A stretch of 64,000 nt of DNA from Dehalococcoidia bacterium. GTDB lineage: Bacteria; Chloroflexota; Dehalococcoidia; Lucifugimonadales; Australimonadaceae. The stretch lies in contig OZ251500.1 of the NCBI GenBank assembly GCA_965242755.1, forward strand, positions 3,055,415-3,119,414, read 5' to 3'. Under the pieces are notes generated by a model that had not been told where the DNA came from, made no database searches, and saw only the letters and a list, made by a program, of their open reading frames with translations. Below, piece by piece: positions 49,473 through 56,708 of the stretch. The first letter of the stretch is position 1. The number at the start of each line of letters is the position of its first letter. The translations under genes were made by a program, and so were the position numbers.

Positions 49473-50336
49473 GTGCCGAGCGTCAGGCAAATTCGCGGGC
49501 GGATACGCAGCGTCCGCAACACCTCGCGGGTCACTCACGCGATGCAGATGGTCGCCGCGTCCAAGATGCGCCGCGCCCAGGAAGCCGTCGTCGCGTCGCG
49601 CCCCTACGCCCGCAAGTTGCGCGAGGCGATAGGCGGCATCGTCGGGCGCGGCGCCGGCGATTCCGATTGGACGCACCCCCTGCTGGAGCGCCGGCCCGTC
49701 GGCGGCGTCCTCCTCCTCGCCGTGTCCCCCGACCGCGGCCTCGCAGGCGGCATGCCGGGCAACCTCACCCGCGCCGCGGGGCGGTTCGCCCAAACGCAGG
49801 AGCGCCCGGTGTCGGCGGTGACGGTCGGCAAGAAAGCGCGCGACTTTATGGTCCGCGCCGGGATTCCCCTCCGCGCGTCGTTCACCGACGTCGGCGACAG
49901 GCCGACGATGGCCGACACGCTCGCCGTCACCCGCCTCGTGGAGCGGCTGTACACGGAGGGCGAGGTTGACGAGGCGCACATCGCCTATACCCGATACGTC
50001 AACACCGTCGTACAGCAGCCCGTCGTCGAGCGCTTGCTGCCCGTCGCCGCGGAGGGAATGGACGACGCGCCCGCGCCCGACGTCCTCTACGAGCCCGACG
50101 CGCAGACCGTGCTGGGCGCGCTGCTGCCGCGCTTTATGGAGATGCAGGTCTACCAGGCGTTCCTCGAGAACAACGCGAGCGAGCAGTCCGCGCGAATGGT
50201 GGCGATGAAGAACGCCACTGAAGCCGCCGAGGATATGGTCGCCGGCCTGACGTTGGAGTTGAACAAGGCGCGCCAGAACATGATCACCGCCGAACTGCTC
50301 GACCTCGTAGGAGGCGCGGCGGCGTTGGAAGGCTAG
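49473..50336 (+). CDS. atpG: ATP synthase F1 subunit gamma
   Basis: AMQMVAASK, DRGLAG, SEQSARMVAM and NKARQNMITAEL. Confidence 0.97.
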   Translation: MPSVRQIRGRIRSVRNTSRVTHAMQMVAASKMRRAQEAVVASRPYARKLREAIGGIVGRGAGDSDWTHPLLERRPVGGVLLLAVSPDRGLAGGMPGNLTRAAGRFAQTQERPVSAVTVGKKARDFMVRAGIPLRASFTDVGDRPTMADTLAVTRLVERLYTEGEVDEAHIAYTRYVNTVVQQPVVERLLPVAAEGMDDAPAPDVLYEPDAQTVLGALLPRFMEMQVYQAFLENNASEQSARMVAMKNATEAAEDMVAGLTLELNKARQNMITAELLDLVGGAAALEG

Positions 50337-50342
50337 AGAGCC

Positions 50343-51488
50343 TTGCTCAAGCAAGTCCACATAAAGAACTTCAAGAGCATCGCCGCCGCAGTCGTTGACC
50401 TCAGCGGATTCACCGCGCTTGTTGGCCCGAACGGCGCGGGCAAAAGCAACTTCGTGGACGCGCTCCGATTCGTGACGGACAGCCTCACGGTCTCGCCGGA
50501 TTACGCGATTCGGAACCGCGGAGGCATAGACCTCGTTCGCATGAAGTCGACCGGCCACCCGGCGAACTTCGGATTCAGGATCCGTATGGAATTGGAGCCG
50601 GGCCCGGCGGACTATTCGTTCGAAATCAAGGCGGAGCAGCGCGGGCGCTTCTCCGTCAAGCGCGAGCGGTTCATCAGCAATTCGGCGCGCTTCGAAGTCA
50701 AAGACGGCGACTTGATCAGCGAAACCATCAGCGGCTCCATAGAGAAAGACAGGCTTGCGTTGCCCGCGCTTTCGGGATTTCCCGAGTTCCGCCCCGCTTA
50801 CGACGCGATGGCGAACTTCAGGTTCTACGCGCCCGTGTCCGACAAGATCCGTCAGGCGCAGGAACCCGATCAGGGAGAAACGCTCCAGCCCGACGGCGGC
50901 AACTCCGCCGCGATTCTCCGCGAAATACGCCGTTGGGATGAGACGAAATACGACCGGGTGCGTAAGTACCTCGCGCAGATCGCGCCGAGCGTCAAGGATG
51001 TCGGCTACGCCAAAGCGGGTACGAAAGAAACGATTGCGTTCTATCAGGACGTGGGAGCGGCTAGTCCGTGGGAGTTCGGAGCCATCAGCATGTCCGACGG
51101 AACGCTCAGGACGCTAGGCGTGCTGCTCGCGGTGTTCCAAATGAACACGCCAACGCTGACGGTCATAGAAGAGCCGGACGCCGCCGTCCACCCGGCCGTC
51201 CTCGAAACATTGCTCGACCTGCTGCTGGAAGGCAGCGAACGCTCCCAAATGATCGTGACGACCCATAGCCCCGAATTGCTCGACCACAAGAGCGTGGACG
51301 ACGACGCGATCCGCATCGTTGATTCGGAGAGGGGAAAGACGAGGATCGGCCGGATGTCGCCCGGCGCGAGGCGCGTATTGGCCGCCCGTCTCGCGTCGCC
51401 CGGCGAAATGCTGCTACAGAACGAATTGGGGATAGACCGCGAGCAATTGCGCGAGGCCAGATTGTTCGGACCGGCGAGAGCGGCATGA
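50343..51488 (+). CDS. AAA_21/ABC-type ATPase (defence-associated)
   Basis: NFKSI, GPNGAGKSN, MSDGTLR, IEEPD and TTHSP. Confidence 0.88.
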   Translation: MLKQVHIKNFKSIAAAVVDLSGFTALVGPNGAGKSNFVDALRFVTDSLTVSPDYAIRNRGGIDLVRMKSTGHPANFGFRIRMELEPGPADYSFEIKAEQRGRFSVKRERFISNSARFEVKDGDLISETISGSIEKDRLALPALSGFPEFRPAYDAMANFRFYAPVSDKIRQAQEPDQGETLQPDGGNSAAILREIRRWDETKYDRVRKYLAQIAPSVKDVGYAKAGTKETIAFYQDVGAASPWEFGAISMSDGTLRTLGVLLAVFQMNTPTLTVIEEPDAAVHPAVLETLLDLLLEGSERSQMIVTTHSPELLDHKSVDDDAIRIVDSERGKTRIGRMSPGARRVLAARLASPGEMLLQNELGIDREQLREARLFGPARAA

Positions 51489-52075
51489 TCGTTCCTATCG
51501 TCGAGGGACAAGGGGAAGAGCAATCCGTCCGCATCGTGCTGGAGCGAATGATGGGGGACTTGGAGACCTACGCCGCCATAGACAAACCCTTTCGAGTGAA
51601 AAGGAACAAGATCGTTCAGCCCAACGAACTGGAGAGGTGCATCGACAGAATCTTCAACGCTCGCGAGAACGTCGGCGCCGTGCTGCTCCTCTTGGACGCC
51701 GACGACGACTGCCCCCAGGATTGCGGAGCGGAACTCAAGGCTCGGGGGCAAACCCATATCGGCGACAGGGGCTACTTCGGCGTCGCGCTGGCCAACCGCG
51801 AATTCGAGGCATGGTTCCTCGCCGACATGGAGGGGCTATCCGCTGGGATTGACGGCGCGCCCTTCATCGCCTTGCCGGATGACGTGGAGAGCGTTCGGGG
51901 CGCCAAAGAGCGGTTGCGCGAAGCGTTGGGGCAGCCTTATCGGCCCACGGTCGACCAAGCCGGGCTCGCTAGCCGCTTCGACCTCCGCCGCGCCGCCGAG
52001 CGTTGCCGCTCGTTCCGAAAACTCCAATCGGAGTTGGCCCATATCCTGCAGTTCGCAGGCGCCGCCCGCGCCTGA
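51485..52075 (+). CDS. DUF4276-family TOPRIM-like protein
   Basis: IVEGQGE, LLDADDDCP, EFEAWFLAD, YRPTVDQ and SFRKL; ATGA overlap with the ATPase. Confidence 0.82.
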   Translation: MIVPIVEGQGEEQSVRIVLERMMGDLETYAAIDKPFRVKRNKIVQPNELERCIDRIFNARENVGAVLLLLDADDDCPQDCGAELKARGQTHIGDRGYFGVALANREFEAWFLADMEGLSAGIDGAPFIALPDDVESVRGAKERLREALGQPYRPTVDQAGLASRFDLRRAAERCRSFRKLQSELAHILQFAGAARA

Positions 52076-52102
52076 TATACTGCCGTCACGCCAAAGGGGG
52101 AA

Positions 52103-55122: not shown

Positions 55123-55266
55123 CCCTGCCCGCCTAGGCGGGAATCCAGTCGGCGCGACAGCGCCAATGCCCCCTCTCCCGATGGCGGGAGAGGGGACGAG
55201 GGCGAGGGGCGGCGCGCAGCGGCGTAAGTGGAAATCCGGTATAATGGAGCGCACAGGGAGAACCGC

Positions 55267-56259
55267 ATGCTCAACGACCTCGTGCAGACCATCAAAACGC
55301 TCAAAGAGCGCATTACGGCGCACGCGCCCGAACTGCGACGGAACGAAATCCGTACTCGCGCAGTGCTCATAGACCCGATGCTTGCCGCATTAGGGTGGCC
55401 GGTCAGCGACCCCTCCGCCGTGGTCGTGGAGTACGAAGTCGGAGGTGGGCGCGCAGATTACGCTTTGCTGAGACGCGTGGACGACAGGCCTACTCTTGTC
55501 ATAGAAGCCAAGAAGTACGACGAGCCGTTAGATGCCCATCGTATGCAACTCCTAACCTACGCGTTGGGTCAGGGCATTCCTTATGGCTGCTTGACGGACG
55601 GCAACCGATGGCAAGTCTACGACATCTTCGCCGCCGTAAGGAGTGGTGAGCCGCAGCCGTTAGACCAAAGGTGCAGGTTAGACATCACGATTGCCGCCGA
55701 CCCTCCGGCGAGGTCGGCGTTGGCCCTCTTGGGCATATGGAGGCCCAACCTGCAGACCGACGGCCAGCTGGTGGAAGCCTCCTACCCTTTCCTGATGGAT
55801 GCCCTTAGTCAGTCCCCGTTAGAACCCGCGCCACCCATAGAGCCGCCCACTCCGACGATGGAGGTTGCCTCCGCGCCTGGTTGGACCTCTCTGACAGACA
55901 ATTTTGAGGTGAAGCACAGACCTGCGCCTAGCGAGATGCAGTTCCCTGGCAGCCCTGCGATAGCCGTGAGGAGTTGGCGGGGTATGGTTGTGGAAATTGC
56001 CCTATGGCTGCACGAGCAAGGACTGCTGTCTCGCCAAAACTGTCAAATCCCCAGAGGCGAGCGCAGTAATCGCGTGATCTTCAGCCTGAACGGGATGCAT
56101 CCTAACGGCGAGCCATTTAGGAACCCCGTGCCGATCGAGCGCGTCGGCATGGTGCTGGAAGGTAACATGGATGGCGCAGCCTGTGTTCGTCTCGCGAAGA
56201 GGCTTCTCGCGCACTTCCGCCAAGATCCCTCGCAAGTCCGCATGAGGCTTCCCGGCTAG
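55267..56259 (+). CDS. HsdR-N-like PD-(D/E)XK nuclease-domain protein
   Basis: NEIRTRAVLIDPMLAALGW, VEY, RADYAL, IEAK, QLLTY and LTDG; own TATAAT at 55240. Confidence 0.82.
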   Translation: MLNDLVQTIKTLKERITAHAPELRRNEIRTRAVLIDPMLAALGWPVSDPSAVVVEYEVGGGRADYALLRRVDDRPTLVIEAKKYDEPLDAHRMQLLTYALGQGIPYGCLTDGNRWQVYDIFAAVRSGEPQPLDQRCRLDITIAADPPARSALALLGIWRPNLQTDGQLVEASYPFLMDALSQSPLEPAPPIEPPTPTMEVASAPGWTSLTDNFEVKHRPAPSEMQFPGSPAIAVRSWRGMVVEIALWLHEQGLLSRQNCQIPRGERSNRVIFSLNGMHPNGEPFRNPVPIERVGMVLEGNMDGAACVRLAKRLLAHFRQDPSQVRMRLPG

Positions 56260-56267
56260 GAGAACCG

Positions 56268-56708
56268 ATGACCATCCGACTCGAAATCGTAACCGCCGAG
56301 CGAACGCTCTTCGAAGGCGATGTCGACGCGCTCGCCGCGCCGGGCGTCGAGGGCGAAATCGGCGTGTTGCCCAAGCACGCCGCGCTGATGACCGTCCTGC
56401 AGCCGGGCGACCTCCGCTACCGCGTCAACGACGTCGAAGAGGAATTCTCCGTCACCGGCGGCTTCATCGACGTGCGCGGCGACCATGTGTCCGTCCTCGC
56501 CGACGCCGCGGAGCGCTCCGACGAGATCGACGTCGCGCGCGCCGAGGAGGCCGTCGCCCGCGCGCGCCGCCGCATCGAGGAGCACACCGGCGACGTCGAT
56601 CTCGAGCGCGCCCTCCGCTCTCTCCGGCGAGGCCAAGCGCGGCTCGACGTCACTCGCCGCCGTCGCCGCCGCGGAACGGGCGTCCCCTCCCGCGAAGCCA
56701 GCGCCTAG
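56268..56708 (+). CDS. atpC: ATP synthase F1 subunit epsilon
   Basis: EIVTAER, GEIGVLPKHA, GGF and IDVARA. Confidence 0.96.
   Translation: MTIRLEIVTAERTLFEGDVDALAAPGVEGEIGVLPKHAALMTVLQPGDLRYRVNDVEEEFSVTGGFIDVRGDHVSVLADAAERSDEIDVARAEEAVARARRRIEEHTGDVDLERALRSLRRGQARLDVTRRRRRRGTGVPSREASA

Follow-up and report, generated by a model that had tools for sequence, protein, structure and literature searches.

Three conflict-type gene modules interrupt the sole ATP synthase operon of a Dehalococcoidia bacterium

We report that the only F-type ATP synthase operon of an uncultured Dehalococcoidia bacterium (assembly GCA_965242755.1) is interrupted by three conflict-type gene modules, which occupy two slots, atpG-atpD and atpD-atpC, and stem from three separate insertion events. 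The locus lies in a 64,000-nucleotide stretch of contig OZ251500.1 (positions 3,055,415 to 3,119,414 of the forward strand; hereafter the window), part of a complete 3.16-Mb single-contig genome that was assembled from a metagenome (G000 in our samples). Coordinates are those of the window unless a genome or locus is named. As determined from open reading frames (ORFs), Pfam and PADLOC, all genes lie on the plus strand in the order atpF-atpH-atpA-atpG, an AAA_21 ATPase gene with a DUF4276 gene, atpD, a phosphoribosyltransferase (PRTase) gene with a DprA-like gene, a PD-(D/E)XK nuclease gene, and atpC. The order and shared orientation claimed in an earlier interpretation of the letters alone (the sequence-only reading) are thereby borne out.

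Defence and toxin-antitoxin (TA) hotspots between core genes are well known. In the literature that we searched, we found none inside an essential operon, between ATP synthase subunit genes, and this address of the cargo appears to be new. The parts themselves belong to, or are variants of, kinds already known (HEC-01, ShosTA-like and a restriction-type nuclease domain), one of them already dead. With a probability of about three in four, we favor the reading that the operon tolerates co-oriented inserts, above all at atpD-atpC, where TA or defence-type modules collect, and that three such events are recorded in this genome.

Results

An interrupted operon

F-type atpD and atpA are each present once in the genome, which makes this its sole F-type operon. 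From atpG through atpC the genes are spaced, in order, by 6, -4, 27, 75, -4, 168 and 8 nt. Two of these spacings had been pointed out before, namely the start of the AAA gene 6 nt past the atpG stop, where the start codon proves to be TTG, and the nuclease stop, which abuts the atpC ribosome-binding site and falls 8 nt before the atpC ATG. The inserted genes have a GC content at third codon positions of 70-84%, as opposed to 88-91% in the atp genes. No terminator-like sites were found on the plus strand between 47511 and 56874. The inserts may be co-transcribed with the atp genes and, as the sequence-only reading proposes, constitutively expressed.

Contigs from a second sample (X2) match the window with 0 differences over three stretches: 49400-52254, from atpG through insert 1 into atpD; 53018-54529, from atpD through the PRTase gene, including an in-frame TAG, to the start of the DprA-like gene; and 56251-56800, from the nuclease gene into atpC. 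They bridge neither copy of the 30-bp repeat that flanks insert 3. Because of these three exact matches, we regard the interrupted operon as real rather than as an artefact of assembly.

The two junctions in relatives

We compared both intervals in 40 relatives (21 from the genus, another three from its family and 16 from further families of the order) and found variability mainly at atpD-atpC. There, the genes are contiguous in 34 of the 40 relatives and separated by the PRTase-DprA pair in four (G001, G011, G018 and G025), and the junction is broken in the two closest, G002 and G004. In contrast, atpG and atpD are contiguous (no more than about 170 bp between matches) in all 37 relatives with both genes on the locus, a count that leaves out three genomes with cut contigs (G009, G023 and G033). 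Related genomes carry different cargo or none between the same flanks. The expectation of the sequence-only reading that the slots vary across the lineage therefore holds for atpD-atpC (6/40 relatives occupied or split, together with 12/120 order genomes having gaps of at least 456 bp among the matches listed) and does not hold in general for atpG-atpD; a relative about 95% identical has empty sites for inserts 1 and 3.

The closest relatives, whose AtpD is 97% identical to that encoded here, have the operon split exactly at atpD-atpC, with atpC lying 0.17 Mb from atpD (inverted) in G002 and 1.5 Mb from it in G004. In G004 a DprA-like gene (85% identical) stands directly upstream of atpC, the PRTase gene is gone and an Nmad3 gene directly follows atpD; in G002 only a 300-bp DprA remnant is found upstream of atpC, and the PRTase gene is likewise gone. 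Since the PRTase gene of the window carries an in-frame TAG, the toxin was lost by different routes in all three members of this clade. The suggestion that an essential operon protects its cargo from deletion is contradicted by these broken, missing and remnant genes, and also by the cargo-bearing G018 and the cargo-free G012, which have ~99% identical atpD DNA.

A wider tally covered 120 genomes of the order in which atpD and atpC were paired on one contig among the best 150 matches per search, with gaps worked out by hand; it leaves out G107, whose listed matches lie on different contigs, and genomes with a single listed match. Among these, 102 gaps are shorter than 130 bp, six measure 149-173 bp and 12 measure 456-2095 bp, with a median of 40 bp. 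At least six types of cargo occur at atpD-atpC (Table 1). One of them, a small ORF with a PaREP1/HEPN-like gene, resembles a TA pair and is unmatched in PADLOC; a degenerate copy occupies the same slot in G105. Inserts are also found at other junctions of the operon: four related Dehalococcoidia genomes (L059-L062) with a retropepsin-like gene between atpG and atpD also have PRTase-DprA between atpD and atpC, and L056 has a 100-aa ORF between atpA and atpG. As a side observation, no atpD was seen in the 764 bp upstream of atpC to the contig end in G611 (L145, G611:C417:1-2675), one of 29 other Chloroflexota genomes compared, where the junction may be occupied or split.

A preferred address for one PRTase-DprA lineage

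We scanned genomes and metagenomes with an alignment (A1) of six DprA-like proteins. In GTDB, represented by one genome per species and leaving out four weak matches in Streptomyces and Acidoferrales, 16 Chloroflexota loci were recovered. Of these, 10 occupy the atpD-atpC interval and one (L056) follows atpC directly; a further one (G004) is a DprA-atpC arrangement lacking atpD, and the remaining four (L063, L066, L068 and L069) are found at other places. JGI metagenomes yielded 19 loci, 16 of them flanked by atpD and/or atpC, one not (L093) and two too short to tell (L101 and L104). The subfamily is thus linked to atpD or atpC at 12/16 genome loci and on 16/17 informative metagenome contigs. 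Two of the metagenome loci, L097 and L103, have 520-560 bp from the DprA-like gene to atpC, which may represent a further small insert like insert 3.

The same address was recovered in two further samples. Ten genomes of the order sample (200 genomes plus G000) match at E<1e-45, G000 included, and in seven, from five families, the pair is embedded in the atp operon (G000, G001, G025, G161, G102, G149 and G155); the other three strong matches are elsewhere (G065, G129 and G119), and five weaker matches are away from atpD/atpC or on other contigs. In the class sample (400 genomes), 23 match at E<=1e-40. Five are flanked by atp genes (G000, G001, G563, G248 and G581), among them every one of the four matches at E<=1e-100 in genomes other than G000, and 18 are not within the 1.5 kb examined, one of these being G455 (unpublished). 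The address is common to several families and to other orders of the class, down to an AtpD protein identity of ~73%. We conclude that the PRTase-DprA pair is a long-term resident at one address and not random cargo. We found no description of its linkage to the beta-epsilon junction in the literature searched, and the almost exclusive tie between one lineage of PRTase-DprA modules and this junction across much of Dehalococcoidia appears to be new.

Gain, loss and swapping of cargo

On a tree of AtpG, AtpD and AtpC combined, cargo presence needs at least 7 changes, in a sample that is biased because its rows include loci found through their cargo. The cargo-bearing G018 and G001 fall among cargo-free species to which they are nearly identical. 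Comparing G018 with the cargo-free G012, identity per 100 nt is 97-100% through atpG-atpD, followed by a clean 1.3-kb indel and then by 93-99% through atpC and beyond. Comparing G018 with G001, the flanks are 89-100% identical and identity falls to 48-65% over ~800 bp, which is the PRTase gene; at the protein level the two share 99.8% in AtpD, 93.3% in the DprA-like protein and 51.6% in the PRTase. The toxin gene has been replaced here in the manner of a cassette. At shallow depth the cargo tree follows the host clades, and it lacks resolution deeper down; copies at other places in genomes branch within the atp-linked clade, from which we conclude that the module does move. Old residence combined with many losses and with local exchange by homologous recombination is the most economical reading of these patterns.

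Table 1. Features of the interrupted operon in the window, followed by cargo at atp junctions of other genomes
Feature	Position	Strand	Evidence and remarks
atpG (gamma subunit)	49473..50336	+	Intact to TAG stop; Pfam ATP-synt E 1.1e-86; 3' end aligns with G002/G004 to the stop codon
Insert 1 (1766 bp)	50337..52102		Takes the place of the ~21-nt atpG-atpD spacer; new ribosome-binding site for atpD
HEC-01A, AAA_21/ABC-type ATPase, 381 aa, TTG start	50343..51488	+	PADLOC PDLC04178 E 2.5e-119 (residues 2-375); Pfam AAA_21 E 4e-32
HEC-01B, DUF4276 (Toprim superfamily), 196 aa	51485..52075	+	PADLOC PDLC04196 E 7.8e-54; Pfam DUF4276 E 2e-16; 4-nt overlap with HEC-01A
Promoter-like hexamers TTCGCA-18-TATACT with a TG	52052..52081	+	In the final part of insert 1, immediately ahead of atpD; a lead only
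atpD (beta subunit)	52103..53518	+	Pfam ATP-synt_ab E 8.4e-70; sole beta gene of the genome
Insert 2, ShosTA-like PRTase + DprA-like module	53519..55092		Own TTGACC-type upstream element; junctions compared with G011, G018, G001, G025
PRTase gene (ShosT/PsyrT-like toxin), broken	53594..54400	+	In-frame TAG at 54077-54079; stop overlaps DprA ATG (ATGA)
DprA-like gene (ShosA/PsyrA-like antitoxin), apparently intact	54397..55098	+	Pfam DNA_processg_A (PF02481) E 5.1e-47; longest ORF from GTG 54391
Insert 3	55093-56253 + second repeat copy		REP-like cluster and nuclease gene between repeat copies
Direct repeat, copy 1	55093..55122		DprA-like last codon and stop, ribosome-binding site, first 5 atpC codons
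REP-like repeat cluster	55123..55227		5' end of insert 3; TATAAT next, near 55240 and upstream of the nuclease gene
PD-(D/E)XK (HSDR_N) nuclease-domain protein, 330 aa	55267..56259	+	Pfam HSDR_N E 3.9e-06; longest ORF from GTG 55228
Direct repeat, copy 2	56254..56283		Supplies nuclease stop, atpC ribosome-binding site and atpC start
atpC (epsilon subunit)	56268..56708	+	Intact; Pfam ATP-synt_DE_N E 5.1e-26
PRTase-DprA	atpD-atpC slot of G001, G025, G149, G155		Among the 12 long gaps
69-95-aa ORF + PaREP1/HEPN-like protein (126-128 aa)	L105:327-938 (G062), L106:357-968 (G057), L107:272-942 (G063)		Three families
138-aa ORF alone	L110:264-680 (G146)		atpD-atpC slot; overlaps atpC start (ATGA)
ParA-like AAA_31 ATPase + same conserved 138-aa ORF	L111:245-1611 (G158)		atpD-atpC slot; 138-aa ORF overlaps atpC start (ATGA)
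199-aa Gly/Ala-rich ORF	atpD-atpC slot of G096
DDE transposase (insertion sequence)	atpD-atpC slot of G196
Retropepsin-like aspartyl protease gene, 124-126 aa	L059:2162-2536, L060:2298-2672, L061:2287-2667, L062:2297-2677		Between atpG and atpD; gag-asp_proteas E 9e-09, DTGA motif

Insert 1: a HEC-01 pair between atpG and atpD

The boundaries of insert 1 were set by alignment with G002, G004, G019 and G007. It is present in a single copy in the genome and has a GC content of 61-63%. HEC-01A contains a Walker A motif (GPNGAGKS), a Walker B motif (VIEEPD) and an H-loop (TTHS), and HEC-01B has the glutamate (in IVEGQGEE) and the DxD (in DADDD) expected of its family. The passage cited from PMC12065111 assigns DUF4276 to Toprim and defines the motif as a catalytic Glu plus DxD. 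No homologue of HEC-01A was found at E<=1e-50 in the 200 other genomes of the order. A contig ~95.5% identical in atpG (X6) joins position 50341 to 52105 with eight other letters between them and thus represents an empty site. Given the lack of order-wide homologues, the contiguity of atpG and atpD in all 37 relatives and this empty site, insert 1 is a recent acquisition.

Insert 2: a ShosTA-like pair between atpD and atpC

Homology of G004 to the region of insert 2 ends ~13 bp past the atpD stop and returns at the DprA start, and no flanking repeats were seen around the insert. The TAG within the PRTase gene falls on a Trp codon that is Trp in all four intact relatives (G011, G018, G001 and G025), and it looks like a single TGG-to-TAG change; the X2 contig has it as well. 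The loop that binds phosphoribosyl pyrophosphate (PRPP) is encoded only downstream of the TAG. As the stop replaces a conserved Trp upstream of this loop, the toxin gene is broken here, and the PRTase of this genome cannot be credited with an intact PRPP-binding loop. Its C-terminal part matches PADLOC PsyrT at 1.1e-08.

In the four intact relatives the PRTase is one ORF of 237-271 aa, whose matches to Pfam Pribosyltran have E values between 3e-08 and 4e-05 and scores of 23.4-33.5 bits, three of the four exceeding the cut-off of 26.3; the PRTase end of PADLOC PsyrT is matched at 2e-11 to 6e-14. The N-terminal half is distinct and hypervariable, with a conserved Cys-x-Cys-x-His start. Directly downstream of the PRTase gene lies the gene for the DprA-like (SLOG/Rossmann) antitoxin, whose product matches PADLOC PsyrA at 3.9e-51 and ShosA at 6.4e-38. 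A separate match of canonical DprA type is present elsewhere in the genome (35% identity). The sequence-only description of the inserts as defence or TA modules stands for two of the three, through the matches of HEC-01A, HEC-01B and the DprA-like protein; for the nuclease, PADLOC matches are absent or weak.

A decayed relic of this region was noticed at G000:C1:1950754-1950980, in which a DprA-like 3' part is 87.5% identical to window positions 54868-55016 and is followed, 10 bp on, by an internal piece of atpC 82% identical to 56318-56383. Since the relic joins DprA-like and atpC pieces, it derives from a junction fragment once copied elsewhere.

Insert 3: a nuclease gene and a 30-bp duplication at the atpC start

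The two repeat copies that bound insert 3 are identical in 30/30 positions. A contig of metagenome X6 passes from 55102 directly to 56264, leaving out 1161 nt, and is thus an empty site for this insert as well. In both X5 and X6, depth is zero over 55328-56068, though the DprA-like gene is covered at ~95% identity. Based on the empty site and the depth gap, we conclude that insert 3 is a recent insertion with a 30-bp target duplication. No flanking direct repeats were found at nuclease homologues of five relatives or at two paralogues in this genome, except for one unrelated 23-mer, and the duplication is therefore not a hallmark of the nuclease family.

The nuclease carries a D...EAK motif. 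In a confident AlphaFold2 model (predicted local distance difference test score 88.7) its N-terminal domain is similar to those that carry the nuclease function in BpuSI, HsdR and DrdV, and a fold search with the C-terminal domain gave no match to any solved fold. The protein belongs to a large family of ~320-aa proteins, with 538 homologues at E<=1e-5, none of them named; its atlas cluster of 1586 members is commonest in Chloroflexota and labelled 'hypothetical protein' only. Within the genus the family is patchily distributed, in 11/21 genomes, with a best match of 50% identity and never adjoining atp genes. Homologues P0002-P0004 are 79-81% identical, and no relative was recovered when metagenomes were scanned with the nuclease sequence. 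Paralogues with in-frame stops or cut to the N-terminal domain are found at G000:C1:3034728-3035708, G000:C1:1494495-1495043 and G018:C1:316068-317048, and the family turns over quickly.

The repetitive extragenic palindromic (REP)-like element in front of the nuclease gene has hundreds of BLAST copies in the genome; the pattern ATTCCC-N8-GGGAAT occurs 494 times and a related pattern 726 times. The palindromic repeat at 55121-55194 has further copies in the window near 10678, 24067, 27414, 28360, 28499, 33133 and 33260. REP-like copies also lie 3' of atpD in G002, and short-read and metagenome contigs break at this repeat. Directly 3' of atpC is a 677-aa ORF (56735-58768) of low GC content (58.8%) that neither Pfam nor PADLOC matches. 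The genome encodes three paralogues of this ORF, full-length at 50-55%, and its last ~90 aa form a domain repeated in dozens of other ORFs.

Discussion

Our proposed explanation combines one old resident with two recent gains. The ShosTA-like pair between atpD and atpC would be the old resident, and its action may be pictured from the Escherichia coli system. The parts of PMC11961720 that we cite describe ShosT as a PRTase coupled to pyrophosphatase activity that disturbs purine metabolism, ShosA as a DNA-binding protein that promotes recombination, and T7 Gp0.7 as shutting off transcription and thereby releasing the toxin; ShosA works via single-stranded DNA and RecA, according to the portion cited from PMC12961424. 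By analogy, the PRTase toxin would disturb purine nucleotide metabolism and a DprA-like antitoxin, itself unstable, would hold the toxin in check by way of DNA and of repair linked to RecA, so that a phage shutting off host expression would let the antitoxin decay and the cell arrest. In this genome the toxin is dead, its Trp codon turned to TAG, which leaves an orphan DprA-like gene.

The first of the recent gains would be an intact pair of ABC ATPase and Toprim proteins (HEC-01, with PARIS/OLD-like logic) placed exactly in the atpG-atpD spacer. The other would be a stand-alone PD-(D/E)XK nuclease gene that entered the atpC start together with a REP-like leader, the 30-bp target duplication rebuilding the ribosome-binding site and start codon of atpC. 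Among close relatives, cargo is most likely gained, lost and swapped by homologous recombination through the conserved atp flanks.

More tentatively, the beta-epsilon junction may be the home of ShosTA-like modules across several Dehalococcoidia orders. The supply of labile antitoxin would then be tied to transcription of the energy operon, which would report host shut-off, while the toxin is swapped as a cassette and the module's own promoter lets the operon split, as in G002 and G004. We consider this elaboration possible but doubtful as a whole.

A number of observations weigh against our preferred explanation. Two promoter-like sites were found in the region and 1.6 are expected in shuffles, no excess over chance. 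Strong PADLOC matches are confined to HEC-01 and the DprA-like protein (ShosA/PsyrA); the PaREP1 pair, the 138-aa, 199-aa, ParA-like and retropepsin-like proteins and the nuclease have a weak PADLOC match or none (other cargo reaching PDC-M28B at 8e-07 and PDC-M08B at 2.3e-05 at most); because PADLOC matches are missing, a label of 'defence' is not established for most other cargo. The PRTase of the intact relatives matches PADLOC ShosT weakly, at about 3e-05 and in two of the four, and is matched better by PsyrT, a much longer protein. In 28 of 29 other Chloroflexota genomes, one of the 28 being G624 (unpublished), atpD lies no more than 219 bp from atpC, a control that is not significantly different from 12/120 and is too small to show lineage specificity of the hotspot. 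A single origin of the alleles within the genus is not rejected by the approximately unbiased (AU) test (p-AU 0.19), and consequently much of the pattern can be accounted for by long-standing vertical residence and losses, with no need of targeting; on the same test we dropped the claim of cargo transfer between families. Finally, we found no phage test of members of the PRTase-DprA subfamily, HEC-01 or the nuclease family in the literature searched.

Alternatively, the cargo may play no part against phage and consist purely of selfish addiction modules or of neutral genes that hitch-hike, whose insertion is tolerated and which ride on conserved flanks by homologous recombination. Epsilon, as the last subunit gene and one needed at low stoichiometry, would offer a tolerant place. 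The distribution is indeed patchy, with cargo present or absent between genomes 99% identical in atpD; the toxin is decayed or lost throughout the closest clade, one cargo is a plain transposase, and most other cargo is unmatched in PADLOC. The strong matches to HEC-01 and to ShosA/PsyrA speak the other way, as does the phage defence by E. coli ShosTA described in the cited part of PMC11961720, and the sharp block replacement of the PRTase is what would be expected of conflict-driven diversification. On balance we rate a purely selfish or neutral cargo as somewhat unlikely, and it is not mutually exclusive with the defence-type collection that we favor.

An improbable alternative is that PRTase-DprA is a site-specific element that targets atpD-atpC by homing or by a dedicated recombination site. 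Its recurrence at one address in several families and other orders, in spite of AtpD divergence, and the mobility seen in the cargo tree would fit such an element. However, the module encodes no integrase, transposase or homing-type nuclease, its junction sequences differ between families, insert 2 lacks flanking repeats, and shallow cargo clades match host clades, with the AU test not rejecting one origin within the genus.

We find it very improbable that the inserts are lineage-specific accessory or regulatory parts of the ATP synthase with a housekeeping role, for example a nucleotide-sensing PRTase/SLOG pair that acts on energy status. The strict and old linkage to atpD/atpC and the tight, co-oriented spacing of the pair would suit such a role, but the pair is found in only 7/201 sampled order genomes and 5/21 searched genus genomes (G000 included), its PRTase is broken here and hypervariable elsewhere, the composition is foreign, and the family matches are to TA and defence proteins. 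An assembly chimera with the TAG as a sequencing error, for which one might point to the metagenomic origin of the single contig and to the REP-like cluster at 55123-55227, is effectively refuted already by the X2 contigs, which cover the TAG, the nuclease-atpC junction and, for inserts 1 and 2, their outer junctions, and by an atpD-PRTase-DprA-atpC architecture common to relatives.

If residence within the operon is functional, collection of conflict modules between atp genes would reveal a wiring principle for abortive infection modules that sense shut-off, namely to borrow the promoter of an indispensable operon. The slots also provide candidate new systems: the small ORF with PaREP1/HEPN, the ParA-like gene with the 138-aa ORF, the retropepsin-like gene and the HSDR_N nuclease. 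Cargo can remodel an operon of textbook conservation, as ribosome-binding sites are replaced, a gene start is duplicated and, in G002 and G004, operon fission goes together with cargo. Annotators should therefore not assume that atpGDC is contiguous in this clade.

Comparison with known systems

HEC-01 is, to our knowledge, a candidate system only, without published phage tests. Insert 1 resembles it in having an AAA_21 ATPase gene followed by an overlapping gene for a DUF4276 Toprim protein, with near full-length profile matches and intact predicted catalytic motifs, and differs in its location between the gamma and beta subunit genes, for which the literature searched held no precedent. PARIS, OLD and the Mad3-Mad4 part of MADS fall in the same wider class of ABC ATPase plus Toprim nuclease, and DUF4276 is named among PARIS-related ATPase partners in the part of PMC11464382 cited here. 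Membership of insert 1 in MADS (Mad3/Mad4) was considered and rejected, as it reaches 121.6 bits with NCBIfam MAD3, far short of the cut-off of 420, and has no methyltransferase partner.

Insert 2 resembles ShosTA (also known as DprA-PRTase, a type IV TA and abortive infection system of E. coli) and PsyrTA in that the PRTase gene lies upstream of, and overlaps, a DprA-like gene. It differs in the hypervariable N-terminal half of its PRTase, the weak ShosT score, its location in an ATP synthase operon and a toxin that is a pseudogene here. The C-terminus of E. coli ShosA confers instability, as stated in the cited part of PMC11961720; the DprA-like proteins of the G018 and G001 alleles have no C-terminal tail. 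The nuclease of insert 3 shares the HSDR_N-type PD-(D/E)XK fold of its N-terminal domain with HsdR of type I restriction. It was rejected as a type I restriction-modification HsdR, since only HSDR_N is matched in a protein of 330-343 aa; it has no helicase or translocase domains and no HsdM or HsdS neighbours, and belongs to a large unnamed family.

The locus resembles defence islands and integration hotspots flanked by core genes in several respects: its flanks are conserved, its cargo varies among close relatives, empty sites occur, the composition is foreign, and the exchange fits homologous recombination. Unlike them, it is bounded by neighbouring subunit genes within a single essential operon, and its cargo is small (0.4-2 kb), co-oriented where examined and without an integrase. 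It differs further in that a single cargo family dominates, one that is nearly specific to the atpD-atpC address.

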